Positions 16,700 through 32,000 of a stretch of 32,000 nt of DNA are shown here, in pieces. The DNA is from Nostoc sp. PCC 7120 = FACHB-418. GTDB lineage: Bacteria > Cyanobacteriota > Cyanobacteriia > Cyanobacteriales > Nostocaceae. The stretch lies in the NCBI RefSeq assembly GCF_000009705.1, contig NC_003272.1, positions 2,400,001-2,432,000 of the forward strand, written 5' to 3'. The translations under genes and the position numbers were made by a program. Position 1 is the first letter of the stretch. Each line of letters starts with the position of its first letter. The notes beneath the pieces were generated by a model. That model had not been told where the DNA came from, did not search any database, and saw nothing but the letters and a program-made list of their open reading frames with translations.

Positions 16700-16740
16700 C
16701 GCAAAGGGGCGCGAAGGAAAGCGCAAAGGGGCGCGGAGGA
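16700..16740. repeat. Tandem 19-nt GC-rich direct repeat
   Basis: CGCAAAGGGGCGCGAAGGA (16700-16718) and CGCAAAGGGGCGCGGAGGA (16722-16740), 18/19 identical with period 22. It is preceded by TTAACG, like the 8851 element. Confidence 0.85.
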
Positions 16741-16784
16741 TTTTTACTTAGTACCTTAGTGGATTGGGAAATAGGGAAATAAAT

Positions 16785-16816
16785 TTTTGAATTTTGAATT
16801 TTGAATTTTGAATTGA
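16785..16816. repeat. Heptamer tandem repeat, about 4.5 units of TTTTGAA
   Basis: ttttgaa ttttgaa ttttgaa ttttgaa ttga read directly. It ends 2 nt before the stop codon of the C39-ABC gene. Confidence 0.9.
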
Positions 16817-16818
16817 TT

Positions 16819-19041
16819 TCATCCTTCCGTCCGAATCAAACGCGAATATGCACCCTCAACTTGCCAAAGTTCTTGGTGCGTACCTTGTTGTACTACTTTC
16901 CCCCGTTCCAGGACAATGATTTGGTCACAGTCGCGGATAGTGCTTAATCGGTGCGCCACGATAATACAGGTACATCCCCGACGGCGGAGATTTTGGTCAA
17001 TGATTTTTTCTGTTTCTGCGTCTAAGGCGCTGGTGGCTTCATCCATAACTAGGATAGAGGGATTATTTACCAACGCACGGGCAATTTCTAACCGTTGTCG
17101 TTGACCACCACTGAGATTAGCAGCACCTTCGATGAGTTCGGCATCATAACCTCCAGACATAGAGAAAATTACATCAGCGATCGCAGCATCTTGGCAAGCC
17201 CTCATGAGGTTTTTATCTGGTACAGTAGTATCCCAAAGGGTTAAATTGTCCCTCACCGTACCGCCAAACAGCAAAATTTCCTGCTCGACCATCGCCACAG
17301 AGTTAGTCAGTAGTTGGAGGGAAATCTCCTCTCTCGGTTGACTATCAAAGTAGATTTCCCCAGTCCAAGGTTGATACAGTCCGCTTACAAGTTTGGCAAT
17401 GGTAGACTTACCAGAACCGCTTCCCCCCACTAACGCCACACGCTGTCCTGGTTTAATTGACAGATTAAAGTTTTCAATTAAAGGCGCTTCCAAGCGGCTA
17501 TAACCAAAAGTGATATTTTTTAACTCCACATATCCTTGCAATTTAGGAAGCGCCTGGAGTGATGAAGACGATGTTTTACCCCCTACTTCCCCCACGGGGT
17601 TATCCAACACATCATCAAGACGAATCAAGTTTCCCTCTAATTCCTGGAGAGTCGTACCAAAGTTGACGAGATTGTTGACGGGTTGCTGAAAACCAGACAT
17701 TAAACCTTGAAAGGCGATGAGCATACCGATACTTAGATGTCCATCCATCACGCGGAAACCACCGACTATCAAGAGCAACATGGCGGAGAGAGCCGATAGC
17801 AGTGTGGGTAAAACTGAGAATGTCTGGTTTGTAATTCCTAGTTCCTGTTGGGAATTGAGCGCCTTGGTGTAATAACCAGACCATCGAGAAAAGAAATCAG
17901 ACTCTAACCCTGATGCTTTGAGTGTTTCTATACTTTGTAATGTAGCGATAGATATACCCGCCGCCTTCCCATATTCTTGAATTAATCGTTGATTAGCATC
18001 TATCCGTTGACGAGAAATCCATTGCAAAGTTAAGACGTTCACGGCGGCAAAACTGACCACCATCAAGGTAAGTACCCAGTCATACTGCACCATCACCAAA
18101 GCATAAAAAAGCACCATCAATGTGTCAATGATGGTTGTTGCTAACTGTCCAGCCAGAACATCGGCTACTTGGTCATTTAGGGTAGTGCGATTACTGATTT
18201 CCCCAGCAAATCTTTGAGCATAAAAGCTCACTGGTAGGCGGAGAATATGCCAGAGGAAACGGCTAGACATACCCACAGCTAGTCTAATTTTGAGTCGGCG
18301 TAGGTAGCGTAGTCGTAGTAATGTGAGTGATCCTTGCAGTATAGCAGCGATCGCCATTGCCAAAAGTAGAGGGTGCAGCCATAACATTCGTCCCTGCACC
18401 AAGATATCATCGACAAATATTTGACTAAATACGGGGATTACCAACCCAATAATCGTCAAGAAAAATCCTGCCACGATGCAGTAAACTAAAGCACTCTCAG
18501 CCCCCTGTAACCGTGACCACAAAGATGCAATCATGCTGGGTTTGCGACCACCTTTTTGGAACTCTGCGCCTGGTTCCATCACCAGTACTATTCCGGTATA
18601 TCCCTCGTCAAATTCTTGTAACGATACATGACGCGGCCCCGTAGCGGGGTCATTGATATAAACCTGATGTTTACCAAATCCCTCTACCACAACAAAATGG
18701 TTAAAGTTCCAAAAGACAATATAAGGAGGGCGTAATTGTTGTACTTGCTTCAGTTCTTTTTTAAAACCTTTAGCTTCTAGTCCATAAGTTCTGGCAGCTT
18801 TCACCATATTAGATGCCTTGCTGCCATCGCGGGAAACTCCGCAGTCTCGCCGCAGTTGTGGCAATGGTACAACTCGACCGTAGTAACCAAGAATAATTCC
18901 CAAAGCAGCCGCACCACATTCTACCGCTTCCATTTGTAGCAGCGTGGGCGTTTTCACTCGCAGCCTTCTAGGTGGTAGTATTTTTTTTACATACTGCCAA
19001 GGATTAACCAGTGTTACTACGGTAGATTTAGTAGATACCAC
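16819..19041 (-). CDS. Peptidase-C39-domain ABC transporter (double-glycine leader cleavage and export); NHLP/Nif11 export subunit 1 type
   Basis: 740 aa. C39 residues are in context: LLQMEAVECGAAALG (Gln/Cys), NFNHFVVV (His), INDPA (Asp). Walker A GGSGSGKST, LSGGQRQR, ILVMDEATSALD. The GTG start at 19041 overlaps the HlyD stop by 14 nt; the next Met would delete the catalytic Cys. Confidence 0.92.
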   Translation of the reverse strand: MVSTKSTVVTLVNPWQYVKKILPPRRLRVKTPTLLQMEAVECGAAALGIILGYYGRVVPLPQLRRDCGVSRDGSKASNMVKAARTYGLEAKGFKKELKQVQQLRPPYIVFWNFNHFVVVEGFGKHQVYINDPATGPRHVSLQEFDEGYTGIVLVMEPGAEFQKGGRKPSMIASLWSRLQGAESALVYCIVAGFFLTIIGLVIPVFSQIFVDDILVQGRMLWLHPLLLAMAIAAILQGSLTLLRLRYLRRLKIRLAVGMSSRFLWHILRLPVSFYAQRFAGEISNRTTLNDQVADVLAGQLATTIIDTLMVLFYALVMVQYDWVLTLMVVSFAAVNVLTLQWISRQRIDANQRLIQEYGKAAGISIATLQSIETLKASGLESDFFSRWSGYYTKALNSQQELGITNQTFSVLPTLLSALSAMLLLIVGGFRVMDGHLSIGMLIAFQGLMSGFQQPVNNLVNFGTTLQELEGNLIRLDDVLDNPVGEVGGKTSSSSLQALPKLQGYVELKNITFGYSRLEAPLIENFNLSIKPGQRVALVGGSGSGKSTIAKLVSGLYQPWTGEIYFDSQPREEISLQLLTNSVAMVEQEILLFGGTVRDNLTLWDTTVPDKNLMRACQDAAIADVIFSMSGGYDAELIEGAANLSGGQRQRLEIARALVNNPSILVMDEATSALDAETEKIIDQNLRRRGCTCIIVAHRLSTIRDCDQIIVLERGKVVQQGTHQELWQVEGAYSRLIRTEG

Positions 19042-20527
19042 TGGCAGACCTCAAGATTGGTAAAACAAAGGTGATGGGAGCGCGTTCTTCTACCTTGACC
19101 CGCACAACGGTAGTAGTTCCAGAAGAAATATTCAGGTGCGGCCCCGTGGAAGAAGACCACTTGTAACCGCTTGGTGTGTTGGCATCTAATTCTAAGTGAG
19201 AGAATACTTGTATTAATCCTTGCTGTTGAGATACTAAACCTTCCAGCACCTCAGAATTACCGACTTCATTAGCAGCCGCTTCCTTGGTAATCGGGAAGCG
19301 AGAAATGCTGGTGACATTACCCACAATCCCCCCAAAGCGTTCCCGCTTCACCGTTTGGGGAGTAATTTGGATAGACATCCCTGGCTGAATTTTCTTACCC
19401 TCCGCCACAGGAAAATAGGTAACACCAACCAACTTACTCTGGGGATTTTCCGCCTCTATGGTAGCTAACCGTGTACCTGCGTTAACAACTTGCCCTGGTG
19501 TCAAGGTAATTTCTAAAATGCGTCCGCTATGTTGACTAATAATCTGGCTATTATCACTCAGTTGCAGTTCTAGAGAGCCAATCTCTCGCTTCACCTCTTG
19601 AATTTCTTTATTTCTCGCCGTGACATTTTCTAAATCTTGTTGAGCCACGGAAGCCTGTTGACTATCTAATTGTTTCAACTGTGACTGCAAGTCAGCCACA
19701 AGTGTCAAATTTTCCCGATAATCTTTTTCTTGTTGAGTCTCTTTGACATCAAGTTCTTTTAATTGTGCTTGAATATCAGCAATCTTTTCTAAGTTTTGCA
19801 GATATTCCTGTTCTGCTTTGAGGGCTTCATCACCGGAAATCGCCCCTTCTTTTTGAAATAATTCTTGGCGAATTTTCATCCTCCGTAGAAACACAGCAGT
19901 CAGAGCTTGAGCTTGCTGGAGACGTTGCTGTAAGCCTTGACGTTGCTGATCAACAGAGGTGTTACCTTTGGTTTTGAGTAAAGGTGTAATAGCTTCCAAT
20001 TCCAGTATACGCTGCCGGAGGTACTGACGCTGTTGTTGCTGCGATCGCTCCTCTTGTTCCAACCTCCGCCCTTGTAGTGAGCCAACAGCTTTATCTTGCG
20101 ATTCCAGTTGTGTTAGTTTCCCTCGCTGTTGTTGCAGTTGCTTACGCAGTTCAGCTTGGTCAATTGTCGCCAACACCTGCCCTTTTTTAATCACATCCCC
20201 CACTTTCACATTCAACGCCATGATTTGCCCGGCACTTTTGGATTGTAGGGGTACAACATTGCTAGGGTAAATCAATACACCCCGACCCTCAACGGTGATG
20301 GGAATGCTACCATAAATACTCCAGATAAAAGCAACTCCCACAATAGAACCCAACGCCACAAGAGGTAGCCAGCTTTTAGGACTGACTACCTGCATCAGTT
20401 GGTCTAATCTTTCAGGAGAAGATAGACGCTCTAAGGATTCTTTGCGGAATATACTGCCTTTTTTTGTAGCATTAGTTTGGTAACAAAACCTTCTCACTAG
20501 ATTTACTATTGTGGCGACGGAACTCAT
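19028..20527 (-). CDS. HlyD-family membrane fusion/secretion protein
   Basis: N-terminal FRKESLERLSSPERLDQLM + TM (WLPLVALGSIVGVAFIW), lipoyl-like GQIMALNVKVGDVIKKGQVLATID, a long Gln-rich coiled coil, and C-terminal GRILEITLTPGQVVNAGTRLATIE. The first ATG is at 20527 (the track starts at a TTG at 20536). It overlaps the 3' end of the upstream rSAM gene by about 56 nt. Confidence 0.9.
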   Translation of the reverse strand: MSSVATIVNLVRRFCYQTNATKKGSIFRKESLERLSSPERLDQLMQVVSPKSWLPLVALGSIVGVAFIWSIYGSIPITVEGRGVLIYPSNVVPLQSKSAGQIMALNVKVGDVIKKGQVLATIDQAELRKQLQQQRGKLTQLESQDKAVGSLQGRRLEQEERSQQQQRQYLRQRILELEAITPLLKTKGNTSVDQQRQGLQQRLQQAQALTAVFLRRMKIRQELFQKEGAISGDEALKAEQEYLQNLEKIADIQAQLKELDVKETQQEKDYRENLTLVADLQSQLKQLDSQQASVAQQDLENVTARNKEIQEVKREIGSLELQLSDNSQIISQHSGRILEITLTPGQVVNAGTRLATIEAENPQSKLVGVTYFPVAEGKKIQPGMSIQITPQTVKRERFGGIVGNVTSISRFPITKEAAANEVGNSEVLEGLVSQQQGLIQVFSHLELDANTPSGYKWSSSTGPHLNISSGTTTVVRVKVEERAPITFVLPILRSASGIY

Positions 20528-22502
20528 GAAGATCAATATAGCCAGCAGGTAATTCTGAAACTGATAGATAAGGTGAACAAGACCCCTTTAATGCTAAACT
20601 GAGTAGTCTGCCATCGATATCTAACAAAATCTTACGCTCTCGTAACTCAGATACAATGGGGAATATTTCATCCCAGGATACCGGAACGTCAAGCTTTTTA
20701 TTAATTTCTGACACTACTTCTCGATAAGTCAAAGCGCGATCGCAAACTTTATAAACCCAATAAGCCAATCCTTCTAGAAACAATAGACTTTCGGTAGCGC
20801 ATGGTCTACTATCATAAATTGTAATTAAGCTACCACTATCATTCATGCTCAAAATTGGTAAATACTCTGGTTTATGTTCCTTGTAGTACAAAGACTGCCA
20901 TAAACGATTCCATTGGTTTACCCAGAGTTTCAAGTTTTCTAACCCTGGACGCTCTGTTTTTTCACTTGTTTGTTCATTTTCTTCTGTTGCATAACGAGTA
21001 ACCAAATTGTTTTGGTCTTCAAAAAAGTAGGCAAGTTCACTAAGTATTTCTGGCGCAAGTGGATATACGTATTTATAAGGGCGCAAAGGAGACAAGTTTA
21101 AACCCCAGTCCGATGGTCGCTCATAGTAAGGACTAAATCGGTCATAACGAATCTCTGATGCACCGCTTGGTGGTTGGAGATGAGCAATTAAAGGTAGCCA
21201 TTCCATCATCTCCACATACCACTCATCTGACTCCCCTGGAAAGTCCGCAAGTATATTCCAAAATACAATAATTCCTAATTCTCTAGCCCATTTCAATAAC
21301 TGCACATTCATCCAGGCTGTGTTACCTTTGTTCATCAGTTTTAAAATGGAGTTGTGCATACTTTCGATGCCTGGTTGGATGCAACGAACACCAGCTTGTG
21401 CCAATTGTTGCAGATGTTCCCACCTTAAGTTAGCTTTCGTTTCATAAAAAATATTGTAAGCTTCATCTCCAGCAGCAAGAACCGGAATAACCGTATTCAT
21501 GTGATTCATATCTAGGATATTATCGACCACCTGAAATTTACGCAGTCCATAACGTTCACATAGCTGGGTAAACTCTTTCAGCACACGATCAGGAGATTTA
21601 GAACGGTAATTTATACCACTTCCGTTCAATCCACAAAAAGTGCAATGATGTTTTTGCCCCCACCAACATCCACGAGAGGTTTCAATCAAAAGTCCAGGTT
21701 GAATGTAGGGCGAAAGTGTAGAAGCATGGAGGGTTTGAAAGTAATCATCGTAGTCAGGAATTGGTACTTGATCTAAGTTCTGTACGGAAGCTCTTGGCGC
21801 GGCTATGCTGATTTTGGTAGAAGTCCGATGAGATGGACTAATTACACCATAAGGCAATATTGATGGATCAACCTCTCGACCACCATCCAAAAGCTGATAG
21901 CAAAACTCATTAAATAAATCGTCACCCTCTCCCGAAATGATAAAATCTACCCAAGAAAAATGTGTGTGAGTAGCTAACCCCATAGCCCCTTCACAGTTAG
22001 CACCTCCCATAAAAGTAATAATTTCCGGGGCTAACTCTCGTACACGTTTCAAGAGAGCAAGTGAAGCACAATGCTGCTGAAATGTAGAACTACAGCCAAT
22101 AATACGGGGTTGTAAATTGGCTACAGACTGAGCAACACTTTCAATAAATGCTGTAGCCTGCTCACGTACTGCCAAAAATGCTTCTTTCAGGTTCCTATCA
22201 GGCAAATAATTCTCGTAGCTTTTGAAACATGGAGAAATAAGATCGAAATACTCTGAATGGTTAGGATTAAATTCAGGAAATAACACTCCAGAAAATGTCC
22301 ATTCACCCAAGAACGTTTCAATAAAATTCTCACTAATCATAGCATATACATCAAGGCCTATTTCTTCTGCAAACTGGATATTTGGGTATAAAATTGTTGG
22401 TTCAAGCTTTGCTTGTTGTAGACGAGCCTTTAATAAACCAAGAGCAATTGATGGTCTTTCAACTGCTGCATAAGGCATTAATACTAAACATACATCACTC
22501 AT
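20472..22502 (-). CDS. B12-binding-domain radical SAM RiPP maturase (candidate C-methyltransferase, TIGR03975-like from memory)
   Basis: 676 aa. N-terminal Rossmann-like B12 domain pattern (VCLVLMPYAAVERPSIALGLLKA, IIGCSSTFQQHCASLALL, FMGGANCEG). The cluster motif SRGCWWGQKHHCTFCGLNG has C-x7-C-x2-C spacing. Confidence 0.85.
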   Translation of the reverse strand: MSDVCLVLMPYAAVERPSIALGLLKARLQQAKLEPTILYPNIQFAEEIGLDVYAMISENFIETFLGEWTFSGVLFPEFNPNHSEYFDLISPCFKSYENYLPDRNLKEAFLAVREQATAFIESVAQSVANLQPRIIGCSSTFQQHCASLALLKRVRELAPEIITFMGGANCEGAMGLATHTHFSWVDFIISGEGDDLFNEFCYQLLDGGREVDPSILPYGVISPSHRTSTKISIAAPRASVQNLDQVPIPDYDDYFQTLHASTLSPYIQPGLLIETSRGCWWGQKHHCTFCGLNGSGINYRSKSPDRVLKEFTQLCERYGLRKFQVVDNILDMNHMNTVIPVLAAGDEAYNIFYETKANLRWEHLQQLAQAGVRCIQPGIESMHNSILKLMNKGNTAWMNVQLLKWARELGIIVFWNILADFPGESDEWYVEMMEWLPLIAHLQPPSGASEIRYDRFSPYYERPSDWGLNLSPLRPYKYVYPLAPEILSELAYFFEDQNNLVTRYATEENEQTSEKTERPGLENLKLWVNQWNRLWQSLYYKEHKPEYLPILSMNDSGSLITIYDSRPCATESLLFLEGLAYWVYKVCDRALTYREVVSEINKKLDVPVSWDEIFPIVSELRERKILLDIDGRLLSLALKGSCSPYLSVSELPAGYIDLHEFRRHNSKSSEKVLLPN

Positions 22503-22577
22503 GATTTTATTTATATAATTTTCGTTTATGCCGTGGAAAATAGGAATTTGTATTTTATTAATTTAAAACACTAGTTA

Positions 22578-22607
22578 TCTAGCCTAAAATCTTATTTTTA
22601 GGCTAGA
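22578..22607 (-). terminator. 12-bp perfect stem-loop immediately 3' of the NHLP-1 precursor gene (attenuator/processing hairpin candidate)
   Basis: 22578-22589 pairs with 22596-22607 (tctagcctaaaa / ttttaggctaga) with a 6-nt loop. It lies 9 nt downstream of the precursor stop and ahead of the rSAM gene. The U-run follows only after about 9 nt, so it is not a textbook terminator. Confidence 0.4.
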
Positions 22608-22615
22608 CATTTAAC

Positions 22616-22909
22616 TTAAAACTTAACTTTAACCGTAACTGAAACTTCGCCACTAATTCTACCACCTGCTACTGACTCTAGCTCTGCTTCAGATAATGTA
22701 TCTTGCTCAGAATTTGGTAACGCCTGCAAAGATAAATTTCCTGGAGTAGTTTCCACCAAATTAACATCAATACTGGATGGAAGATTAATTCCCTCTTTTT
22801 CCAGAGTAGACCGAGGATTAGATACTAAAGCCTGCTTAAAAGACTCATCTTGCCCAGCTTTTACTATAATTTTTTCTTCGAGTTCTTTCCATGTCATTAC
22901 TAGACTCAT
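22616..22909 (-). CDS. NHLP-leader RiPP precursor 1; predicted core RISGEVSVTVKVKF
   Basis: 97 aa. The nitrile-hydratase-like leader pattern WKELEEKIIVKAGQDESFKQALVSNPRSTLEKEGINLP...LSEAELESVAGG ends in a double glycine. AAGGAG Shine-Dalgarno sequence upstream of the ATG at 22909. The core is 22619-22660. Confidence 0.9.
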   Translation of the reverse strand: MSLVMTWKELEEKIIVKAGQDESFKQALVSNPRSTLEKEGINLPSSIDVNLVETTPGNLSLQALPNSEQDTLSEAELESVAGGRISGEVSVTVKVKF

Positions 22910-23194
22910 TTGTTGTTTCTCCTTAAAGGTTGCAATGGCATTTTGCCATCAAAATACTTTTCAATACAATGCACATTTTCCAGATAGAACTCACCTTTTT
23001 TTAGATTTTTTTATGCTATTTTTAAAGTAAAAAAGTACATTTTTGCCTTTGAATCGCTCTCATACAAATTTGGAAAATAATTGCAACAGATGGACATATA
23101 AAACTCATATACACCAAGCGATTTCCAATCCAAAATTTAAAATGGTGTAAGAAGTTTTATTTTGTTAACAAATTTTAACGGAAGTCTCACTCAC

Positions 23195-26100
23195 TTACTG
23201 CCATAACAATATTGAAGGTAGTAAGTCTGGACATGATAATCTCAATAGCTCATAGCCAATACCAGCTATTCCTTGACAAAAACCAAAACTATATACGTCG
23301 GCTGGTAAATGAGGAAGAAGTTGAAAATAACCAATCTGGTTTGCTCTAGACAAAACTTGAGTTGCTCGATTATTTGCTGTTTCTAGTAATTCTGGGTGTG
23401 AAAGTTGCTTAGATGCAACTAATAACATTTCTATATGACTAAAATTGCCACAGCAGATGTTATCTAAAACCTGTAAACTTGAGTGATGTATTGTATGTAA
23501 ATTTATATCTAATTCTTGACGAATTTCATCTGTATCGAGGATGTTTAAAGTTCCTAACCGAGCCACAGAAATACCAATTAGCCCAGAACACCATTCAGTT
23601 GTAGATGAGAGTAAGCTATTGTCAATGCTAACTAAATCCAAGTCTTGGCAATTGCTGCTTAACGAGAATAAACGTTGTTCTAAAGTAATAGCTTCTCGAG
23701 CTGCTGATGCAAAGATTGGCTCATCAGTAGCTGCATATAATTGAAGCAGTGCATAGGCAATACCCGCAGCACCATGAGAAAATCCTAGTAGTACCTTGCC
23801 TTCAGCATTAGTCCAGGCTTGATAGACTTCATCTACGGTTACACGAGTATCTAGTAAATAATTGCCCCAGCTAATAGCCTGCTGTAAAGTAGCAGGTTCT
23901 TTTGTAGCTTTGTACAAAGCTAATAAGCTAAGAATTGTACCAGCAACACCAGTCATTACTCCAGGTGCTTGATTAACGGTCGCTTCATTTATTACCATCA
24001 AAGAAGCTAGTTGTTGAGCATCCTGAATCAGCTCTACTTCGCCGAGAAACTCACTAATACGAACTAGGGCATAAACAATAGAAGCTAATCCTGTAGCACC
24101 ACCAATACCCATTTGTCCAATTAGCTTTTGCTGAAGGTCAATATGTGGATCTTGTAAAGTTTTGCGTAGGGACTGTAAAGATGCTAAGGATAATTCACCA
24201 AATTCTGCTCGATTCGTAACAGACGCTAGTGCTGCTAAAAATAAAGATATGCCACAACAACCATCATATAAACTATTGCCTACTGGCTGTAATTGAAACC
24301 TTTGCGCCTCAAACAAGTATCCCATCCCAATCCAGGTAACACTATTGTCCTTTCCGCGAATAGCTTGCTGCTCTAGTTGTTGAGCGATGGCGATCGCCTG
24401 CTGTAACATACCTCGTCTTTCTATGGGGGCAACTATGTCCATGTACAGGTTAGGATTCTCTAATGGTAAAGAATTTAGTTGTTCATTAGTCAGACATGAG
24501 TAAAGTGAACCTCTAATCAGGCTAATCTGCTTCGCTAAATCTGCATCATCCATCTGTCGCAGATGGGCAATAACATCGTCATAACTAGAACTACTCAAAA
24601 ATTTATTGATAGTTTGCTCTGAACTAATATCTATTACATTACTATCTGAATATGCCGTGAAATAAGGAATATCTAACTGTTCTAAAGCTTGCTTTTCTGC
24701 TGCTAATAATGGCCATAAAGGATGTTTATCTTCTGAAGAGAGAAATGCTCTGCTTAGTAAGTCTAACTGAATACTATGTTCTACTCCAGTTCGCAAGCAT
24801 TTATGATTTAAAGAGTTCTGCAAAATAGAAGCGTAAACAGTAGTATTGCGAATTACAAGCCGTACTTTCTGGTTGCTAAATGCCGTTATTGGACTATCAC
24901 TTGCTAACAGTTCTTCTTTTCTTTGTTGCAAGAACTGGTACATCTGCCGAAATCCATCTATGAGTTCTTTGCTGTGGTTATTCAGCGAGGTATCAATATT
25001 CTCACCAAAAGGTCGATTTTTTTTTGGTAGTAATTTAGTGTACTCGCGTACAATAACCATGCTATCTGTATTAATGTGCTTCCATTTCATTGCTCGGTAA
25101 GGCATCTCTTGTTCACCAAAACCTCCCAATCCACTGAAGTCTAACTTCAGTATCTCAGTTTGCTCATAAGGCAAAATTTGCCATCCTGGTAAGAAACCAG
25201 TACCAACAACAGAATCTTGTAAACATTCATTTGCTATAGATTTAGCATCAGCATCATCTTTACTTAACCAAGTACGGTGATGTAAAAGTGTCTCTAAATC
25301 TACAAGAACTGGCTGATCTCCACAAGCAATTAAGTTTTCACAATGACAGTCGTTCCCTTTTAAGAGGTACACAATACACAGCACCATACCGGCACGCTGA
25401 TAATAGTGTTTCACTGCGTCTTGATCTTGACATGGCAAAGCTTCAGCGAACTCCATCCAACCGTAGTTAGAGCAATTAATTATCTTCAGCAGCTTCAGGG
25501 GCAAGTTAATTTTTTGTTGATTAATCCAATCTAAAAAATCAAAATAAGCCTTTTCTAAGCCTAAGCTTTTAGGTTTGTAAACTAGCTTGAAACCTGAAGC
25601 AAACTTAATCACAATTACAGCACGGCCACGATTATGAAAATCAGACATTGCTAATTGAACACTAACAACTTGCCCTAATTTTTGCTCTGGCTGAAAAGTC
25701 AACTGAATTTTATCCGAGTCTGATGCCAATCTTGAGAGAAATTCTCCAGTCGCTTCTACCCAGAAGTCTACAGATGTTGCTATCAATCTAGCTAATACAC
25801 TGTACTCTTGGAAGAAAGACAGTAGTCCGTCTTTAAGTAATTTGTTAACAAAATCTGTGTACTGCTGCTTAGAACAATTACTTTGCAACTGATTAATAAA
25901 ACGAACTAAGGGAGAACTTTTTAAAGAGCGAAAAATTGAGAACTCCAGTTCCAAAGGAGAGATGCAAATACCAGTCAAATGCTCCAGGAGACTTCGTTCC
26001 ATTTGAATATGAGCATTTTGTGATAATAAATAATAGCTAGATCCAGCAGACTCAATTAATTTTTTTTTAGCAACATCAACAAATGGTACCAGAATTTCTT

Positions 26101-26488
26101 CAAACGGAAACGGACGTTCAGGATCTAAATACCGATGCTGCTGTAAGAATTTGTTGTTTGAATTTTCTGGAATAACAAAAGTAGCAACTTGCATTCCTGC
26201 TTTTAAAGTTTCCACCCAGTTGGGTAGATATTTTTCATCAGCTAGATTAACATTACCTAAAACACAGCTAATAGTATTAGTATCTAAGCCATCCCACAAT
26301 AAACGCTTTTCAAAATTATGTTGATTTCCTTTAGCGATAAATTGATACCATTTTTCTAATTTAGCATTATTTTGATTTGCATTTATTTGACGGTCATTGA
26401 AAATAAAACTACTACTAAGACGTTCAGAAATATTACTAGAACGCTCTATTATTTTAATTAAAGATTGCTTAGAAACGTTCATAATCAA
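23195..26488 (-). CDS. lanM: Class II lanthipeptide synthetase (LanM), ProcM-like CCG subtype
   Basis: 1097 aa. Dehydratase/kinase-like motifs DFHNRGRAVIVIKF..KLVYKPKSL and GNDCHCENLIACGDQPVLVDLETLL. C-terminal LanC-like motifs GFSHGAAGIAYAL, EWCSGLIGI and NICCGNFSH (the CCG codons are at 23447-23455). Confidence 0.95.
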   Translation of the reverse strand: MIMNVSKQSLIKIIERSSNISERLSSSFIFNDRQINANQNNAKLEKWYQFIAKGNQHNFEKRLLWDGLDTNTISCVLGNVNLADEKYLPNWVETLKAGMQVATFVIPENSNNKFLQQHRYLDPERPFPFEEILVPFVDVAKKKLIESAGSSYYLLSQNAHIQMERSLLEHLTGICISPLELEFSIFRSLKSSPLVRFINQLQSNCSKQQYTDFVNKLLKDGLLSFFQEYSVLARLIATSVDFWVEATGEFLSRLASDSDKIQLTFQPEQKLGQVVSVQLAMSDFHNRGRAVIVIKFASGFKLVYKPKSLGLEKAYFDFLDWINQQKINLPLKLLKIINCSNYGWMEFAEALPCQDQDAVKHYYQRAGMVLCIVYLLKGNDCHCENLIACGDQPVLVDLETLLHHRTWLSKDDADAKSIANECLQDSVVGTGFLPGWQILPYEQTEILKLDFSGLGGFGEQEMPYRAMKWKHINTDSMVIVREYTKLLPKKNRPFGENIDTSLNNHSKELIDGFRQMYQFLQQRKEELLASDSPITAFSNQKVRLVIRNTTVYASILQNSLNHKCLRTGVEHSIQLDLLSRAFLSSEDKHPLWPLLAAEKQALEQLDIPYFTAYSDSNVIDISSEQTINKFLSSSSYDDVIAHLRQMDDADLAKQISLIRGSLYSCLTNEQLNSLPLENPNLYMDIVAPIERRGMLQQAIAIAQQLEQQAIRGKDNSVTWIGMGYLFEAQRFQLQPVGNSLYDGCCGISLFLAALASVTNRAEFGELSLASLQSLRKTLQDPHIDLQQKLIGQMGIGGATGLASIVYALVRISEFLGEVELIQDAQQLASLMVINEATVNQAPGVMTGVAGTILSLLALYKATKEPATLQQAISWGNYLLDTRVTVDEVYQAWTNAEGKVLLGFSHGAAGIAYALLQLYAATDEPIFASAAREAITLEQRLFSLSSNCQDLDLVSIDNSLLSSTTEWCSGLIGISVARLGTLNILDTDEIRQELDINLHTIHHSSLQVLDNICCGNFSHIEMLLVASKQLSHPELLETANNRATQVLSRANQIGYFQLLPHLPADVYSFGFCQGIAGIGYELLRLSCPDLLPSILLWQ

Positions 26489-26561
26489 TTTAAAATAATT
26501 AATTTATTACTTTTTATGAAAAACCTCTCCGGTTTCATTGTAAATGTTTTAATGATTTGTA

Positions 26562-26714
26562 TTATTTAGGACTTGGAAAAAAGAATTTATAGATTTCGGC
26601 ACCAAAATCTTTTCCCTGATCATAAAGCATTGCTCCATTTAAAATAACAACAATCACAAAAATGCTTATGATTACGAATTTAATAATAACTTTAGGATCA
26701 TTTAAATTTTGCAT
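26562..26714 (-). CDS. Unannotated 50-aa single-pass membrane ORF; candidate immunity/accessory peptide
   Basis: Below the track's size cutoff. I translated it codon by codon: MQNLNDPKVIIKFVIISIFVIVVILNGAMLYDQGKDFGAEIYKFFFPSPK, with a TAA stop at 26562-26564. It has one hydrophobic helix, and its tail resembles the core of precursor 2. It sits between precursor 2 and lanM on the same strand. Confidence 0.45.
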   Translation of the reverse strand: MQNLNDPKVIIKFVIISIFVIVVILNGAMLYDQGKDFGAEIYKFFFPSPK

Positions 26715-26759
26715 AATAATTTAATGTATTATCCATCGTCCATGATGAGTTTTTTTGCT

Positions 26760-26783
26760 GGTGTAAGAAAAAACTCCTACACC
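26760..26783 (-). other. Weak stem-loop 3' of the NHLP-2 precursor
   Basis: GGTGTAAG (26760-26767) / CCTACACC (26776-26783), 7 of 8 bp, with an 8-nt loop. No U-tract follows on the sense strand. Confidence 0.25.
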
Positions 26784-26848
26784 AACTTGATTTACAGCGA
26801 AGTGTGATTTTTAGAACAATCTATGATCACAGTGTTTTCTGGAGAAAA

Positions 26849-26924
26849 GCTTTGTGTATTTCTTTACCAAAACCTTTTAATCTACAATGGCTTTATATAT
26901 TTCTTTGCCAAAGTCTTTTAATCT
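26849..26924. repeat. Tandem 35-nt direct duplication (period 41) spanning the 3' end of the NHLP-2 core
   Basis: 26849-26883 versus 26890-26924: 30/35 identical by my position-by-position comparison. Copy 1 encodes RLKDFGKEIYKA in frame. Copy 2 is out of frame and contains the gene's TAA stop (26877-26879). Confidence 0.85.
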
Positions 26925-27227
26925 ATCATAAGTTTTCTCAACAAAAGTGAATATATCTCCAAGACTTCCACCGGCAACCGCTTCTAACTGCTCTTCAGAT
27001 AACTCTACATCTTCTAAATTGGGACGTGCAGGAATTACGAAGTAGAAATTGGAATCATTCTCTTCCACTACATGAACATTTATTTCTTCTGGTAATTGAA
27101 TAGCAAATTCTCTTTCAATTACAGCTTTAGAGTTGTTTAATAACTCTTGCCTGTAGGTTTCGTCTTTCCAGGCTTGAACAATTATTTGTGCTTCAATTTC
27201 TTTACGAGTCTTTGTTTGTTCGCTCAT
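26877..27227 (-). CDS. NHLP-leader RiPP precursor 2; predicted core SLGDIFTFVEKTYDRLKDFGKEIYKAIVD
   Basis: 116 aa. The leader RKEIEAQIIVQAWKDETYRQELLNNSKAVIEREFAIQLPEEINVHVVEEN..FVIPARPN..LSEEQLEAVAGG is a near-consensus NHLP leader. The core is 26880-26966. Confidence 0.92.
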   Translation of the reverse strand: MSEQTKTRKEIEAQIIVQAWKDETYRQELLNNSKAVIEREFAIQLPEEINVHVVEENDSNFYFVIPARPNLEDVELSEEQLEAVAGGSLGDIFTFVEKTYDRLKDFGKEIYKAIVD

Positions 27228-27384
27228 TTTGGTTATTTCCTACTTAAACTAATTAAGGGTTTAATTGATTGGTGGACTGATGAATTCAAGAAAAGAATAG
27301 TAAGTTTTATCAGATGTAATACTAGTTTAAGCTTCCATCTGTATGAGACTTACATAATCATGAATTCTTTAATTTTTAGATTGA

Positions 27385-27720
27385 TTATTTTCTAGAATTA
27401 TGTTCTTCAAGAGCGCCATGAGCGATAGGAATTAAAAGGAGCGTAAGTGTCCATAACGCTCCACCAGCAACGGCTTCTAGCTGCTCATCTGATAATTCTA
27501 CATCTTCTAAGTTAGGGCGTGCAGGAATTACAAAATAGAGGTTAGAAGCATTTTCTTCCATGACGTGAACTGTTATTCCCTCTGGTAATTGAACACCAAA
27601 TTCTTGTTCAACTATTTTTTTAGGATTGTTCAGTAATTCCTGTCTGTAAGCTTCATCTTTCCATGCTTGCACAATGATTTGTGCTTCAACATCTTTACGA
27701 GTTTTAGTTTGCTCACTCAT
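27385..27720 (-). CDS. NHLP-leader RiPP precursor 3; predicted core ALWTLTLLLIPIAHGALEEHNSRK
   Basis: 111 aa. The leader is 71/87 identical to that of precursor 2. AGGAGA Shine-Dalgarno sequence upstream. The core is 27388-27459. Confidence 0.92.
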   Translation of the reverse strand: MSEQTKTRKDVEAQIIVQAWKDEAYRQELLNNPKKIVEQEFGVQLPEGITVHVMEENASNLYFVIPARPNLEDVELSDEQLEAVAGGALWTLTLLLIPIAHGALEEHNSRK

Positions 27721-27853
27721 TCCATTTATCTCCTAACACTACTAAGGTGGAAATTAAGTTATTACTTAAATTAAGTTTATAAAAAAAACGCTAAGGACAC
27801 AATGTACTTTTTTTAGTTAATACTACGTTTTTTTTATTTTAATTTTAAATATG

Positions 27854-28042
27854 TTAATGATTTGTTTTTTGCCAAATAATAGCAGTCAATTCTGCTATAT
27901 CTAAAGCCTGTTTAGCCTTAATTACTTCTCTCAAAAAAGCTCGTTCATCTTCCCAAGCAAACCGAGGTAGGAGAGGTTGAGAAACTAACAGTTCTTCAGA
28001 GGAAATGTTTGCGTCCTGATTTTCTTCGTTTAAATGATTCAT
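27854..28042 (-). CDS. 62-aa acidic/helical hypothetical protein translationally coupled to the rSAM/SPASM gene (possible accessory subunit)
   Basis: Its ATG (28042-28040) overlaps the TGA of the upstream rSAM gene (28041-28039) as ATGA. MNHLNEENQDANISSEELLVSQPLLPRFAWEDERAFLREVIKAKQALDIAELTAIIWQKTNH. No recognisable motif. Confidence 0.5.
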   Translation of the reverse strand: MNHLNEENQDANISSEELLVSQPLLPRFAWEDERAFLREVIKAKQALDIAELTAIIWQKTNH

Positions 28043-29301
28043 CTTGCTACAGAATAAAAAAGTTCAGATTTACTTTGCCAACTATCCGGCCATTGGATGG
28101 AGTCAGCCGTAAAGTGGAGTGGATCATTTTCTATCCAGGGTGCATCAAGTGGTTCTTCAATGATGGTAAATTCGCCATTATCGAAGGGAACTCCTGGGGC
28201 TGACACTTTTGGATAAACTCGCTCTCGTAAGCCACGCTTTGCTAATTCTAGGGCGCGATGGTGGCAGTAAGGATTGTTACCCCGACGATTGAAGAATACG
28301 TGTGCTGTCCAAGTGCAACCCCCGCGACACAATTCGGCAAATTTACAAGTCTTGCAGAATCCCCACAAGTACGCTGTTCCTTCGGGTGTACCAGCATAGA
28401 GATTGAACTGCAATTCTTCGGATTGTTCTACAATTTCCCTTAGTGGACGTTCTCGGATATTGCCACCTGCATAAGCGGTTGTTGGTAGGGAAGGGCAGCC
28501 TTTAATTGTGCCGTCCGCCTCTAAACCTAAAGTTGATAGCCCAGCACCGCAACCCCGCCAAAATCCCCACTCTTTACCTTGTCCCCGCAGCAACCGTTCA
28601 TAAGGCCCGTAGTAACCGATGTTGTTACCAGCAGCAACTCTTACCCCTTCGGTGTTAGCTCGTTGAGCAACACGAGCCAGCATAGGATATAAGTCTAATA
28701 GCTCAGAGGGTTGGAGAAGGATATCTGCATTGTCGGCGGCATTTCCCATTGGCACAGTTAGTTGAATTTGCCATGCTCGCGCGCCTGCATCGCGGATATG
28801 CTCATAAATACTAGGAAATTCAGGGGCAGACAGACGGTTGATTTGGGTATTACAGCCGAAGAGAATGCCAACTTCTTTAAGGTAGCTCATGGTTCTTAAG
28901 CCAGACTTCCAAGAGCCTTTTCGTCCCCGTAAATGATCATGGGTTGCTTCCATGCCATCGGTAGAAACAGAAACTTTTGCAATTCCTGCTTCTTTCATAC
29001 GCTGTGCCATTTCCAAAGAGATGCCATAACCCCCCGTAGTCATGCCGCAGAGCATACCAGCATCGGTAATAGCTTTCGCAATTACTAACCAGTCTGGACG
29101 TAGAAAAGCCTCTCCGCCAATGAGAGTTACTTCTTTAATTCCCACCTCAGCTAATTGCTGAACAAGGTTAAGAGCTTCTGCTGTCGAGAGTTCTTGATGC
29201 CTTGCCTGTCCTGCCCGTGAACCACAATGACTACAAGCAAGATTGCATTTCAATGTGATTTCCCAAACGGCATAACTGGTTCGATGGTGTTTTTCAGACA
29301 T
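28039..29301 (-). CDS. Radical SAM/SPASM-domain RiPP maturase (splicease-like or epimerase-like; chemistry unresolved)
   Basis: CNLACSHCGS (C-x3-C-x2-C) lies near the N-terminus. C-terminal Cys-rich SPASM-type region GCGAGL...GCPSLP...WGFCKTCKFAELCRGGCTWTAHV...YCHH. The track start at 29340 is a TTG; I prefer the ATG at 29301 (MSEKHHRTSYAVWEITLK). Confidence 0.9.
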   Translation of the reverse strand: MSEKHHRTSYAVWEITLKCNLACSHCGSRAGQARHQELSTAEALNLVQQLAEVGIKEVTLIGGEAFLRPDWLVIAKAITDAGMLCGMTTGGYGISLEMAQRMKEAGIAKVSVSTDGMEATHDHLRGRKGSWKSGLRTMSYLKEVGILFGCNTQINRLSAPEFPSIYEHIRDAGARAWQIQLTVPMGNAADNADILLQPSELLDLYPMLARVAQRANTEGVRVAAGNNIGYYGPYERLLRGQGKEWGFWRGCGAGLSTLGLEADGTIKGCPSLPTTAYAGGNIRERPLREIVEQSEELQFNLYAGTPEGTAYLWGFCKTCKFAELCRGGCTWTAHVFFNRRGNNPYCHHRALELAKRGLRERVYPKVSAPGVPFDNGEFTIIEEPLDAPWIENDPLHFTADSIQWPDSWQSKSELFYSVAR

Positions 29302-29339
29302 AGTTTTGCCCAGTGTTTTGGTATTAGCTGTGTAAGTCA

Positions 29340-29378
29340 AAAGCTGTTATGGATTTATATGATGCGTATAACAGCTTT
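29340..29378 (-). terminator. 11-bp perfect stem-loop between the Nif11 precursor and the rSAM/SPASM gene (attenuator candidate)
   Basis: aaagctgttat (29340-29350) pairs with ataacagcttt (29368-29378) with a 17-nt loop. On the sense strand the stem ends in UUU followed by U. Confidence 0.35.
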
Positions 29379-29405
29379 TATAATTACGGCGATGACGTTT
29401 GATAG

Positions 29406-29729
29406 CTATGAAAGATAATCGCGTGGATCAAGTGGATCAAGAATTACACCGTACAGAGCAACTACACCAGGGAAGATACCTTTGATCCAATGAATAGTTT
29501 TTGTTCCACCAGCGATCGCTGCTAATTCCGCTTCGTTAAGTTCCTCATCAGGGGAACTAGTTTCTAAAATCTCAGCAGTAGCAGTTTCCCATTCTTCTTC
29601 TGTGAAATTATATCCTGTTCCTTGTAAGAAACTTATACGTTCTTCGCTGGAATAACTTTCAATTTGAGTGCGGAAAGTTGGATCTGTTGTGATTCTCTGA
29701 TAAAAAGCTTTTGCGCTTTCAATAGACAT
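29406..29729 (-). CDS. Nif11-leader RiPP precursor; predicted core TKTIHWIKGIFPGVVALYGVILDPLDPRDYLS
   Basis: From the ATG at 29729 (AAGAGG Shine-Dalgarno sequence upstream): MSIESAKAFYQRITTDPTFRTQIES...GYNFTEEEW...ELNEAELAAIAGG, a Nif11-type leader with a double glycine. The core is 29409-29504. The Tyr-Gly codons are at 29448-29453. Confidence 0.88.
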   Translation of the reverse strand: MSIESAKAFYQRITTDPTFRTQIESYSSEERISFLQGTGYNFTEEEWETATAEILETSSPDEELNEAELAAIAGGTKTIHWIKGIFPGVVALYGVILDPLDPRDYLS

Positions 29730-29841: not shown

Positions 29842-30936
29842 TTAACTTACTTTTAATCTTCCCAACATCCAATCAAATCTTTTACCAGCGATCGCCATCC
29901 TATCTAAAGTGTTAATATCTAATTCATCGTCATACTCTAGCCCTTCACGTAAAGATTGACCCCGGCTATAAACTCGCCTACCATAACCAAGCTGACTCAC
30001 CATTGCTTGCGATCGCTGGGACAGTAAAGACGCAATTACTCGGTAAAATCTTGATGCAAATCCCACATCTTGTTGTAACTTTGCGGCTAGTTGCTGTCGG
30101 GGAATTGCTAAGACTACAGAATTTTCAATTGCCTTAACAGTTGCAGGGGGTAAACTACCATCTATAAAGGGTGTTTCGCCGATGATTTCACCTTTAGATA
30201 ATTTGGCTATTTCTCTACCAGGAATTTCATGACCCTCAATAGCTGCAAAAGCACGCGCTAAAGGATTCTGTTCATCTGGGGAAATAGACAAGGACATTTT
30301 TCCATAGAGGAGAATATACAGTGCGTCTACAGTTCCTTGTTCATGGATGAGTATGGTATTAGCTGGGATTTTTTGGGGAGTACCAGAAGCCATCATCCAA
30401 TCTATGTCACTATCGTGTAATTCTCCCAGGATAAACAGCACATCTCGTAGATGTTGACTTTGTGCTAGGTTACGACGACCAAGTTGATGGATGGTATTTT
30501 GTATTCTATCGGAAATAATGATGGCGATCGCTCGATAAAAATGCGCCGCAAAACCCACATCTTGCTGTAATTTCGCCGCTAATTCTCCAACCGGAATTGA
30601 CATCACCAGGGACTTTTCCACAGCTTTAATCGTAGTAGCTGGTGGACGTGTCCCAATTAAGGGACTTTCTCCCATTATCTCACCCCTAGATAATCTCCCA
30701 ATCTCCTTACCGAAGATTTCGTTCCCCTCAATAGCTGCAAAAGCACGAGTTAGGGGATTATCTTCTGGTTGCGGGATAGTAACGCTGAATGTACCATCTA
30801 ATAAAATATGTAAAAAATCAGCAGCTTTTCCTGGTTGAATAAGTGTAGTACCAGCCGCTATTTCTCTTTGATGACCTATCGCAACCATCCAGTCAATATC
30901 ACTTTTAGTTAGTTCTTTGAGTAAAACTTCTGTCAT
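29842..30936 (-). CDS. Tandem cyclic-nucleotide-binding-like domain protein (bacteriocin transport-associated type)
   Basis: There are two internally homologous halves (SDIDWMVAIG...RGEIMGESPLIGTRPPATTIKAVE...LQQDVGFAAHFYR and SDIDWMMASG...KGEIIGETPFIDGSLPPATVKAIE...LQQDVGFASRFYR). I prefer the ATG at 30936 (MTEVLLKEL); the track start at 30948 is a TTG. Confidence 0.85.
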   Translation of the reverse strand: MTEVLLKELTKSDIDWMVAIGHQREIAAGTTLIQPGKAADFLHILLDGTFSVTIPQPEDNPLTRAFAAIEGNEIFGKEIGRLSRGEIMGESPLIGTRPPATTIKAVEKSLVMSIPVGELAAKLQQDVGFAAHFYRAIAIIISDRIQNTIHQLGRRNLAQSQHLRDVLFILGELHDSDIDWMMASGTPQKIPANTILIHEQGTVDALYILLYGKMSLSISPDEQNPLARAFAAIEGHEIPGREIAKLSKGEIIGETPFIDGSLPPATVKAIENSVVLAIPRQQLAAKLQQDVGFASRFYRVIASLLSQRSQAMVSQLGYGRRVYSRGQSLREGLEYDDELDINTLDRMAIAGKRFDWMLGRLKVS

Positions 30937-30973
30937 AACTAAGACCAATTATTTATCTACGTTGATACAAAAT

Positions 30974-31957
30974 CTATGACGCTGGTGTAAGTCCCAAGCA
31001 ATTACTCTGTAATCTGTCTAAAGTGTTCTGGATGAAAAAGTGTGCTTCTTGGGTAGCCAATTCTTCTAATGTCAAATATGTCAAAGTGATTAACATTAGG
31101 ATTTGCATATTAGTATCTGTTAGCTTTTGGGCGTATTGAGCATGGAAACGCTGTAAGTTTTCGGCGGCGGCTTTTACCAATGCTTGTAAAATTACAAAAG
31201 CTCCATCAGAAAGTGGCGGTTTACCGCGATAGTTTTGCAGTCTACCTCCTTCTCGATATTGAGGAAATGATTCTAAGCCTAAAAATCGTAAGAACCAGTT
31301 TGCTTGGTAATAACCAGTAGCAGCAATAATGCCTCTATAGTCGGCAATTAATTCGTCAAATATATTATTTCGCATAGAGTTAAATAGACGATATGTTAAA
31401 TAGTGAGTACATTCATGTTCTAGACGAATTGTGAGTGACAATTTTTGCCATTGTGATGCTTTTAGTCCTATTTCTTCGGCTGAAATATTGCTATATGGGA
31501 TATTACTTAAAATAATAAATGTATCTTGATAGAGATGTTTCTGTAGGATTAATCGTTGAAACTCTGTATTCCAATTAGAGGCAAAATGCTCTACTTCCCA
31601 TTTTTGGCGATATTGACGAATCCTGTCCCAATTGTTGAACCCACGAACTATACAAGCTCCCATTGATTGAGGAATAGGTTGGGGTTCGTTATGCTTTGTT
31701 AAGGCTTGCACTAGAGACACAAAATCTTCTCTGTTTTCAGTTAGTAATACGGGGATTGTTCCCGCCAAACTTTGATGGAGGATTAATTGGAGTTTTTGGG
31801 GTTGCTGTAAGACTAAACCAGATGCTTCTAACATCCCATTTGTTGATACACCCTTACGAGTGGCTTTTCTATAGGCTTCTGTCTGAGAGATCCCTTTTTG
31901 GATGGGAAATTGTAACTGTACTAACTTCTGTTTGAGTACTGCAAATGCGCCTATCAT
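30974..31957 (-). CDS. Hypothetical protein with an HExxH motif (LEHECTHY); first gene of the co-directional cluster within the window
   Basis: 327-aa ATG-initiated ORF that is mostly helical. The only recognisable feature is HECTH followed 20 residues later by DELIADY. It lies 25 nt upstream of the cNMP-like gene on the same strand. Confidence 0.7.
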   Translation of the reverse strand: MIGAFAVLKQKLVQLQFPIQKGISQTEAYRKATRKGVSTNGMLEASGLVLQQPQKLQLILHQSLAGTIPVLLTENREDFVSLVQALTKHNEPQPIPQSMGACIVRGFNNWDRIRQYRQKWEVEHFASNWNTEFQRLILQKHLYQDTFIILSNIPYSNISAEEIGLKASQWQKLSLTIRLEHECTHYLTYRLFNSMRNNIFDELIADYRGIIAATGYYQANWFLRFLGLESFPQYREGGRLQNYRGKPPLSDGAFVILQALVKAAAENLQRFHAQYAQKLTDTNMQILMLITLTYLTLEELATQEAHFFIQNTLDRLQSNCLGLTPAS

Positions 31958-32000
31958 TTTGGCTGTAACTGCATATTTTTCCCAAGCTTCTATATGGAGT

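Follow-up and report, generated by a model that had tools for sequence, protein, structure and literature searches.

A LanM-type synthetase among cysteine-free precursor peptides in Nostoc sp. PCC 7120: a probable dehydratase in a mosaic cluster

What can a lanthipeptide synthetase make when none of the precursor peptides encoded around it contains a cysteine? The question is raised by the chromosomal stretch 2,400,001-2,432,000 of Nostoc (Anabaena) sp. PCC 7120 (BA000019), which holds the asl2024-all2030 region and is called the window here (32,000 nucleotides, numbered from its first letter). An initial annotation had recognized a full-length class II synthetase, LanM, together with four double-glycine precursors devoid of Cys, and had offered three explanations: the true substrates are encoded elsewhere, the enzyme acts as a Ser/Thr dehydratase only, or the dehydro residues are captured by Lys or His. 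The comparative evidence (module synteny, Cys-free core families, a degenerate enzyme clade and an association across loci) favors the second. The synthetase, all2025, probably dehydrates two of the four precursors, all2027 and all2026, without making rings, which would give linear peptides with dehydrobutyrine (Dhb) or dehydroalanine (Dha). The cluster as a whole is a mosaic of three precursor-maturase pairs with one common NHLP-type export and leader-cleavage system (Table 1).

Precursors, catalytic residues and a conserved module

The positions first assigned to the four precursor open reading frames (ORFs) proved correct, all on the minus strand, and no Cys was found in any leader or core. 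The precursors and LanM, read from its ATG start, are identical to proteins BAB73723-BAB73729 of PCC 7120 and sister strains, all2025 being BAB73724 exactly, and the leader families were confirmed with NCBIfam models (TIGR03793 at 101-113 bits, TIGR03798 at 89 bits). Adding 2,400,000 to the window positions of the genes gives their coordinates in Table S3 of Wang et al. 2011. The sole Cys among the precursor calls belongs to an older 117-amino acid (aa) version of all2030 (start 29759), where it lies inside a spurious N-terminal extension. Hidden Markov models (HMMs) built from 71 NHLP and 11 Nif11 leaders were run against every stop-to-stop segment of 20 aa or more that the window contains (888 in total), and asl2024, all2026, all2027 and all2030 were the only hits. 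No double-glycine motif with a Cys-containing tail was present in any frame of the same 888 segments; the check proposed at the outset, for a Cys-bearing precursor in an unread small ORF, thus revealed no such ORF in the window. None of the four cores combines Ser/Thr with Cys, as the core of a lanthipeptide precursor would.

The enzyme itself is full length, as had been claimed, with 1095 aa, 1014 bits against TIGR03897 and both domains in place. Its dehydratase motifs (VYKPK, DCHCEN, VDLET and IRNTT) are intact and align with the kinase and elimination motifs of CylM and LicM2. The cyclase motifs SHG, WCSG and CCG had been described as retained, and they are literally there: FSHGA with His903, WCSG with Cys965, and ICCGN with Cys1010 and Cys1011, which leaves all three zinc ligands present. 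That description overlooked the site at which LanC enzymes have their catalytic Asp (NisC Asp141); all2025 has Gly841 there, reading PGVMTG against FDxxxG in canonical LanM enzymes and PDFIAG in LicM2. Asp141 and His212 (NisC numbering) are both described as functionally essential (PMC10604976); of this acid/base pair, all2025 keeps the His, and the Asp position is Gly, an equivalence based on LicM2, whose structure is solved, the D-x-x-x-G-x-x-G motif and the canonical LanM clade, as the phmmer alignment with NisC spanned the His-to-Cys region only. Identity to orthologues was 69-71% in the dehydratase domain and 61% in the cyclase domain. The residue pattern suggests that the LanC-like domain of all2025 carries a decaying cyclase site.

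The same gene order, an all2027-type NHLP precursor, an all2026-type NHLP precursor, a 50-aa membrane ORF and LanM, was found in Trichocoleus sp. FACHB-90 (L011; fetched loci are cited by number), in a metagenome lineage represented by three contigs (L012-14), and also in Scytonema sp. UIC 10036 (L021). Within 10 kb of the module, no double-glycine ORF of these loci contains Cys, and Cys-free cores bearing Ser/Thr are in each case co-localized and co-conserved with LanM. The all2027-type cores follow the pattern xxWTxTxxxIPIxHGxLEEHN (11 distinct close homologues) and the all2026-type cores, whose gene is always second in the module, the pattern FVxxTYxxLKDFGxEIYKA (11 distinct homologues). 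All of them are Cys-free, and both families are conserved, not hypervariable. Conserved in the all2027 family are Thr (Thr4 and Thr6), Pro and the HG..EEHN stretch with both His; the all2026 family keeps a Thr and two Lys. Each family has one position at which Thr is conserved in at least 80% of the cores. The module is a conserved, uncharacterized two-peptide unit in a genetically tractable model organism.

The 50-aa ORF is kept between the second precursor and LanM in L001-L005, L011, L012-14 and L021. Its C-terminus, QGKDFGAEIYKFF, is nearly identical in motif to part of the all2026 core, LKDFGKEIYKAI, and its homologues carry QGKNFGAELYR (L011), QGKNLGVELYR (L012) and QGKALGAEIYK (L021) at the same end. 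The ORF could provide immunity, or its product could imitate the peptide as a partner in the membrane. A further family of double-glycine peptides, marked by a repeated AGKDF(G/V)GD motif, adjoins LanM modules as well (L011 9168-9395, L012 6182-6484, L015 1852-2055; example core SGERPVVDALIDAGKDFGGDLVDAGKDLISDVRDVLPLI); it gives a weak match to Pfam CTB and has a KDFG motif in common with the all2026 family.

In a rival scenario, all2026 and all2027 are exported unmodified as two-peptide bacteriocins resembling class IIb, with LanM being no more than a relic or a leader-binding chaperone. The annotation 'class IIb bacteriocin, lactobin A/cerein 7B family' is attached to several precursor homologues, the all2026 core resembles an amphipathic helix with few Ser/Thr, and the cyclase domain is under relaxed constraint. 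We nevertheless regard this scenario as unlikely. The dehydratase motifs are intact and lie in the better conserved of the two domains, the 1095-aa ORF is unbroken and syntenic in three further distinct loci, which argues for function, and both core families hold on to their Thr.

A LanM clade with degenerate cyclase sites

An alignment of 123 LanMs was made from all2025, 118 of the 120 listed homologues and four enzymes from fetched loci. The catalytic Asp is present in 91 and replaced in 32 (31 Gly, 1 Asn), with unambiguous substitutions in the alignment. His is kept in 89 of the 91 Asp-bearing enzymes, and each zinc Cys position in 88-90; among the 32 others, His is kept in four, all three zinc Cys in 18, and both in only two, the PCC 7120 enzyme and P0081. 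At matched dehydratase divergence, the ratio of cyclase to dehydratase identity was 0.85-0.95 in the non-Asp group vs 1.01-1.08 in canonical LanMs. When residues 1-700 were clustered by the unweighted pair group method with arithmetic mean, leaving out the cyclase domain, the root split separated 89 canonical enzymes from a group of 34, which consisted of 31 of the 32 non-Asp enzymes and three that are degenerate at other positions. By these comparisons, all2025 belongs to a separate cyanobacterial LanM clade whose cyclase site appears to be decaying.

This bears on the proposal that all2025 works in the manner of ProcM, its true substrates being Cys-containing NHLP or Nif11 precursors elsewhere in PCC 7120, with the local peptides processed by other enzymes or exported unmodified. 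Such a role would agree with the retained His and three-Cys (CCG) zinc site of all2025, with the 'STPxC' cores found on very similar leaders in other loci, and with the further double-glycine (GG) motif peptides listed for PCC 7120 by Wang et al. 2011 (asr1202-1204, asr5139-5146, all4236, all7013, asl7296). We consider it improbable all the same, about as much so as export without modification. LanM is tightly syntenic with two Cys-free genes in the three further loci, the cores are conserved instead of hypervariable, and the essential Asp is missing from an enzyme of a decaying clade. A search of 5.8 billion proteins with all2027 gave all2026 as the sole close leader paralogue from PCC 7120, the top-scoring genes in the phylogenetic-profiling table of Haft et al. 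2010 include only the three local NHLPs for this strain, and tblastn with the Nif11 precursor returned no paralogue on the PCC 7120 plasmids. The CCG motif is common to nearly all 123 cyanobacterial LanMs compared and is therefore no marker of ProcM-like behavior.

The relation between cyclase state and substrate was then considered across loci. A genome-collection scan with LanM had listed at least four loci, PCC 7120 itself not being among those listed. A metagenome scan with a LanM profile provided 80 more loci, and 45 distinct loci were scored, with LanMs classed by the five catalytic positions and neighboring leader-bearing ORFs by Cys content; XYG-type Nif11 cores, discussed below, were excluded. 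At least one Cys-bearing core was present in 29 of 31 loci with a canonical (D-H-C-C-C) LanM (43 of 48 cores with Cys), vs 4 of 14 loci with a non-canonical one (7 of 44 cores), a difference with a Fisher p value of 1.7e-5 over the 45 loci and no correction for phylogeny. The Asp/His/Cys3 state offers a simple sequence rule for predicting whether a LanM cluster makes rings.

Two kinds of degenerate LanM deserve separate mention. In the separate 'DQACW' lineage (metagenome loci L051, L052, L055, L063, L064, L075, L083), Asp is kept, His is changed to Gln, the first Cys to Ala or Ser and the third Cys to Trp; these enzymes adjoin Thr/Ala-rich Nif11 cores that are mostly Cys-free and nearly all end in 'KW', such as ISPVFVPITTIITSKIKW. 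In L017 (5977-13288) and L020 (8825-13342), a LanM of the degenerate clade lies directly downstream of a 374-aa reductase of the medium-chain dehydrogenase/reductase (MDR) or zinc-dependent alcohol dehydrogenase (ADH) type, and the NHLP cores are Ser/Thr/Ala-rich and Cys-free or nearly so. The L017 operon also encodes two proteins of 375 and 599 aa without family assignment, and L017 has another LanM, of canonical type, accompanied by a core with 3 Cys. By analogy, L017 and L020 look like clusters for D-amino-acid peptides of the Npn type.

With these two loci and the Npn precedent (PMC5808125) in mind, a variant of dehydration by all2025 can be envisaged in which its Dhb and Dha are hydrogenated to D-2-aminobutyrate and D-Ala by a reductase encoded elsewhere. 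No reductase of the zinc-ADH/MDR or flavin type was found in the 32-kb window, and the all2026/all2027-type modules of L011, L012 and L021 have none of the Npn kind either. We rank this variant as the least probable of the readings considered here.

Several observations weigh against dehydration without ring formation. All three zinc Cys are kept in four of the five LanMs tied to the all2027/all2026 module, so that the zinc site may remain under selection for some function, and the PCC 7120 enzyme, unusually for its clade, retains His together with the three Cys. In L015, a LanM with a single zinc ligand left stands beside four 'STPxC' cores, so that the loss of zinc ligands is no clean readout of lost ring formation. 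Class III cyclases, moreover, function without zinc. The all2026-type core has one conserved Thr only and is possibly not modified at all. The locus association carries no phylogenetic correction, yet at least two independent degenerate lineages, the Gly type and the 'D-Q-A-C-W' type with cores ending in KW, show the trend. Finally, Wang et al. 2011 list about 30 other, loosely classified GG-peptides of PCC 7120, which may include Cys-bearing ones. The L015 case (6122-11693; also L016) is itself peculiar: its LanM, P0098, has lost the Asp, the His and two of the three zinc ligands, and is preceded by five NHLP precursors, four with cores that begin 'STPxC'. Either a small N-terminal ring is formed there without the enzyme, or the domain works without zinc.

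The retained zinc ligands are also what a crosslink other than a thioether could draw upon. Here, the nucleophile that attacks Dhb or Dha would be a conserved His, either H14 or H20 in HGALEEHN, or a Lys in LKDFGKEIYK, perhaps assisted by the zinc-site domain, and a histidinobutyrine- or lysinoalanine-type ring would result. A lysinoalanine bridge is found in cinnamycin and duramycin, and a His-to-butyrine crosslink in a class III-type product. The only support for such capture, the third of the original explanations, is that Thr4/Thr6 and both His (all2027 family) or Thr and two Lys (all2026 family) are conserved in the cores and that the zinc ligands are mostly kept in module-attached LanMs. 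Against it, the module lacks an additional enzyme comparable to DurN, the acid/base Asp has disappeared from every member and His is changed to Asn in three of the five module-linked orthologues, which speaks against a conserved catalytic role, and the conserved His, Glu and Lys are equally well explained by binding to a target or partner. We judge it very unlikely. The more specific proposal that the zinc site of all2025 guides an invariant His of HGALEEHN or a Lys of LKDFGxEIYK onto Dhb is more doubtful again; if it were true, a class II enzyme would yield a Cys-free, crosslinked two-peptide product, and the Asp-to-Gly change would mark a re-tooled, not a decaying, active site.

Dehydration without ring formation remains the most probable reading, and for all2025 we infer both the residues that are dehydrated and that no crosslink follows. 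The enzyme would bind the NHLP leaders of all2027 and all2026, and its kinase-like dehydratase domain would phosphorylate conserved Thr or Ser and then eliminate the phosphate to leave Dhb or Dha. In the all2027 core, the candidate sites are Thr4 and Thr6; in the all2026 core, the candidate is the Thr of 'TY'. No lanthionine or other thioether would be made, and the LanC-like domain would be a decaying remnant retained for folding or substrate handling. The C39 ABC transporter would then cut after Gly-Gly and export the pair of linear dehydrated peptides, which would probably act together in the manner of a two-peptide bacteriocin or as signals.

Further precursor-maturase pairs, transport and neighboring genes

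The initial annotation had treated all four precursors as LanM substrates, and for the remaining two this probably does not hold. all2030 is followed by the radical SAM/SPASM enzyme all2029, which scored 890 bits against TIGR04103, 'nif11-class peptide radical SAM maturase 3' (cutoff 725). Spliceases are radical SAM 'X' proteins that excise a tyramine unit at the XYG motif of Nif11-like precursors, and in cyanobacteria they depend on a small 'Y' gene that lies directly downstream of the X gene (PMC5995677, PMC11414181). With 'ALYG', the all2030 core has a splice-type X-Y-G motif, and a small ORF that immediately follows the radical SAM gene downstream, here asl2028, is kept in L001, L006, L011, L015, L020 and L021. 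XYG motifs accompany every homologous radical SAM gene encountered, in the adjacent Nif11 cores of eight further loci (L006, L008, L011, L015, L017, L020, L021, L045); besides the ALYG of all2030, examples are SIALYG, VALYG, YPLYG, TPLYG, QAIYG, PMYG, PVYG and QLMYG. On a plasmid of Nostoc sp. C057, a trio of the all2030/all2029/asl2028 type is found without LanM, near enzymes of the thiazole/oxazole-modified microcin (TOMM) type, namely a TOMM leader-binding protein and a SagB dehydrogenase. On the strength of the motif, the X/Y gene pair and the LanM-less trio, all2030 is most likely the substrate of the splicease-like all2029 acting with asl2028. A PoyD/AvpD-type epimerase was considered for all2029 and set aside, as nothing specific was found in the literature and the XYG motif and small downstream ORF favor the splicease type.

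The other precursor, asl2024, lies next to all2023, a B12-binding radical SAM protein annotated as a C-methyltransferase for peptides that are made on the ribosome and modified after translation (RiPPs), with 869 bits against TIGR03975 (cutoff 282). It has a divergent NHLP leader and a short, beta-strand-like core of alternating residues. The protein search gave eight matches and the metagenome scan no homologue; homologous cores read RVKISVSVEF, RITINVWKC and IYIAIKI, the last without Ser/Thr. asl2024 and the B12 radical SAM gene are jointly absent from the otherwise syntenic L011, L012 and L021, and the only other context found for an asl2024 homologue is a LanM-less locus (L018), where the neighboring radical SAM/SPASM enzyme is a different one. 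The adjacent all2023 probably acts on asl2024, a pairing that we infer. The pair of proteins in L018 was tested as a possible split all2023 and turned out not to be one, its radical SAM protein being of an unrelated SPASM type. Directly after the asl2024 stop and before all2023, a strong hairpin with a 14-bp stem that looks perfect (22576-22609) shows a terminator pattern on both strands; it may be an attenuator that sets the precursor-to-enzyme ratio.

Table 1. Features of the asl2024-all2030 region, in window positions
Feature	Description	Position	Strand	Evidence or remark
Export and leader-cleavage system	whole system	13761-20536	-	
Export system, component	second ABC subunit	13761-16619	-	
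Export system, component	C39-peptidase ABC transporter	16819-19041	-	
Export system, component	HlyD	19028-20536	-	
all2023	B12-binding radical SAM, annotated RiPP C-methyltransferase	20472-22502	-	TIGR03975, PF04055, PF02310
asl2024	NHLP precursor, 97 aa	22616-22909	-	core RISGEVSVTVKVKF; TIGR03793, 101 bits
all2025	class II lanthipeptide synthetase LanM, 1095 aa from annotated ATG	23195-26482	-	TIGR03897, 1014 bits; PF13575; PF05147
all2025, LanC-like domain		~23204-24286	-	PF05147, 241 bits
all2025, Cys1010 and Cys1011	kept cyclase residues	23450-23455	-	alignments
all2025, Cys965	kept cyclase residue	23588-23590	-	alignments
all2025, His903	kept cyclase residue	23774-23776	-	alignments
all2025, Gly841 codon	catalytic Asp position of LanC enzymes (NisC D141)	23960-23962	-	alignment
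all2025, dehydratase domain		~24653-25804	-	PF13575 (DUF4135), 455 bits
50-aa ORF	one predicted transmembrane helix	26562-26714	-	unannotated in BA000019; WP_158629505 exactly; no family match
all2026	NHLP precursor, 116 aa	26877-27227	-	core SLGDIFTFVEKTYDRLKDFGKEIYKAIVD; TIGR03793, 103 bits
all2027	NHLP precursor, 111 aa	27385-27720	-	core ALWTLTLLLIPIAHGALEEHNSRK; TIGR03793, 113 bits
asl2028	62-aa ORF, candidate 'Y' activator	27854-28042	-	4-bp overlap with all2029 stop
all2029	radical SAM/SPASM maturase, 420 aa from ATG, splicease-like 'X'	28039-29301	-	TIGR04103
all2030	Nif11 precursor, 107 aa	29406-29729	-	core TKTIHWIKGIFPGVVALYGVILDPLDPRDYLS; TIGR03798, 89 bits
TIGR03896 protein	two cyclic-nucleotide-binding domains, bacteriocin-type transport-associated family	29842-30948	-	TIGR03896, 529 bits

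The transport genes scored 584 bits (TIGR03794), 1214 bits (TIGR03796) and 1052 bits (TIGR03797). On the other side of the cluster, from 29842 to 31957 and beyond, lies a set of genes that travels with the radical SAM/Nif11 module (also in L001, L006, L011, L012 and L020) and comprises the TIGR03896 protein, a DUF7005 protein, a MinD/ParA ATPase and a dCache/HAMP protein; the last has an N-terminal Nif11 domain in some loci. The DUF7005 gene of the window (30974-32000) is listed as a complete ORF of 327 aa starting at 31957, while in assembly GCA_003990585.1 (L001 4337-5509) it has 390 aa and would extend beyond the window end. The mismatch in length suggests that the two assemblies of PCC 7120 differ here in sequence or by a frameshift.

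A HetR peak from chromatin immunoprecipitation sequencing has been located at 27714-28147, in the promoter region of asl2028/all2027, and a gfp fusion to the asl2028 promoter gave expression in vegetative cells but not in heterocysts, with a reduced signal when hetR was mutated (PMC4192349). Expression of part of the cluster is restricted to vegetative cells and linked to HetR. The NHLP precursors and the radical SAM maturase are the genes that this paper had read as 'nitrile hydratases' and a 'heme biosynthesis protein'. A promoter scan gave a result at chance level. dnaA and dnaN also lie in the window, at 3018-5975, and alr2014 and alr2015 (9116-10007, plus strand), putative bacteriocin precursors according to Wang et al. 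2011, are really a DUF3531 protein and a NUDIX hydrolase.

Comparison with known systems

The locus is a real and correctly read feature and does not amount to new chemistry. A LanM beside Cys-free precursors is already known: Haft et al. 2010 drew this exact locus in their Figure 2 and predicted the outcome, and the biochemistry of a sister case has been elucidated in Nostoc punctiforme, so that a RiPP specialist will find little surprise in it. No paper on the product of all2025 was found in the literature searched. Three points are added here: the four precursors divide among three maturases, the four-gene module is conserved, and a degenerate-cyclase clade is linked to Cys-free substrates. 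Mining tools that discard Cys-free cores, or that give every nearby precursor to LanM, will misread mosaic clusters of this kind.

Among characterized systems, the PlpA/PlpX/PlpY spliceotides of Pleurocapsa resemble all2030/all2029/asl2028 in that a Nif11-type precursor with X-Y-G is accompanied by a radical SAM/SPASM gene that has a small ORF directly downstream; the likeness to PlpX and PlpY is one of motif and gene layout. For all2025, ProcM of Prochlorococcus MIT9313 is comparable: it too is a class II synthetase whose zinc site is Cys-Cys-Cys, and its system has leaders of the NHLP/Nif11 type together with a C39 ABC exporter; it differs in that its ProcA cores are hypervariable, Cys-rich and scattered through the genome, whereas the PCC 7120 cores are conserved, Cys-free and syntenic, and their enzyme is without the catalytic Asp. 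Class IIb bacteriocins and two-component lantibiotics likewise have two adjacent, co-conserved double-glycine precursor genes, a small membrane ORF that possibly confers immunity and a C39 ABC exporter. In PCC 7120, by contrast, the leaders are ~87 aa long and of NHLP type, and LanM is part of the module.

Dehydro residues without lanthionine are also produced by the DUF4135 dehydratases CcaM and PoyF, the latter of which is without any cyclase domain. CcaM makes no rings, yet its zinc-free, non-catalytic cyclase domain is required for dehydration (PMC10676384), which provides a precedent for the LanC-like domain retained in all2025. The two enzymes differ in that CcaM has a class III-type cyclase domain without zinc site, is leader-independent and needs azoles, whereas the LanC domain of all2025 is of class II and has kept its three Cys.

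The closest comparison is the Npn system of Nostoc punctiforme PCC 73102, in which, as far as it is summarized in PMC5808125 from Yang & van der Donk 2015, the Cys-free NpnA prepeptides undergo dehydration by NpnM, and the reductase NpnJA converts Dha to D-Ala. There too, a cyanobacterial LanM-type enzyme adjoins Ser/Thr-containing, Cys-free prepeptides and a linear product is predicted, and the related loci L020 and L017 carry a zinc-ADH/MDR reductase of the Npn kind. The PCC 7120 window and the all2026/all2027-type modules differ in having no such reductase, and the PCC 7120 cores form two conserved families in place of Ser/Ala-rich ones. The NHLP-type leader of NpnA is a further point in common.

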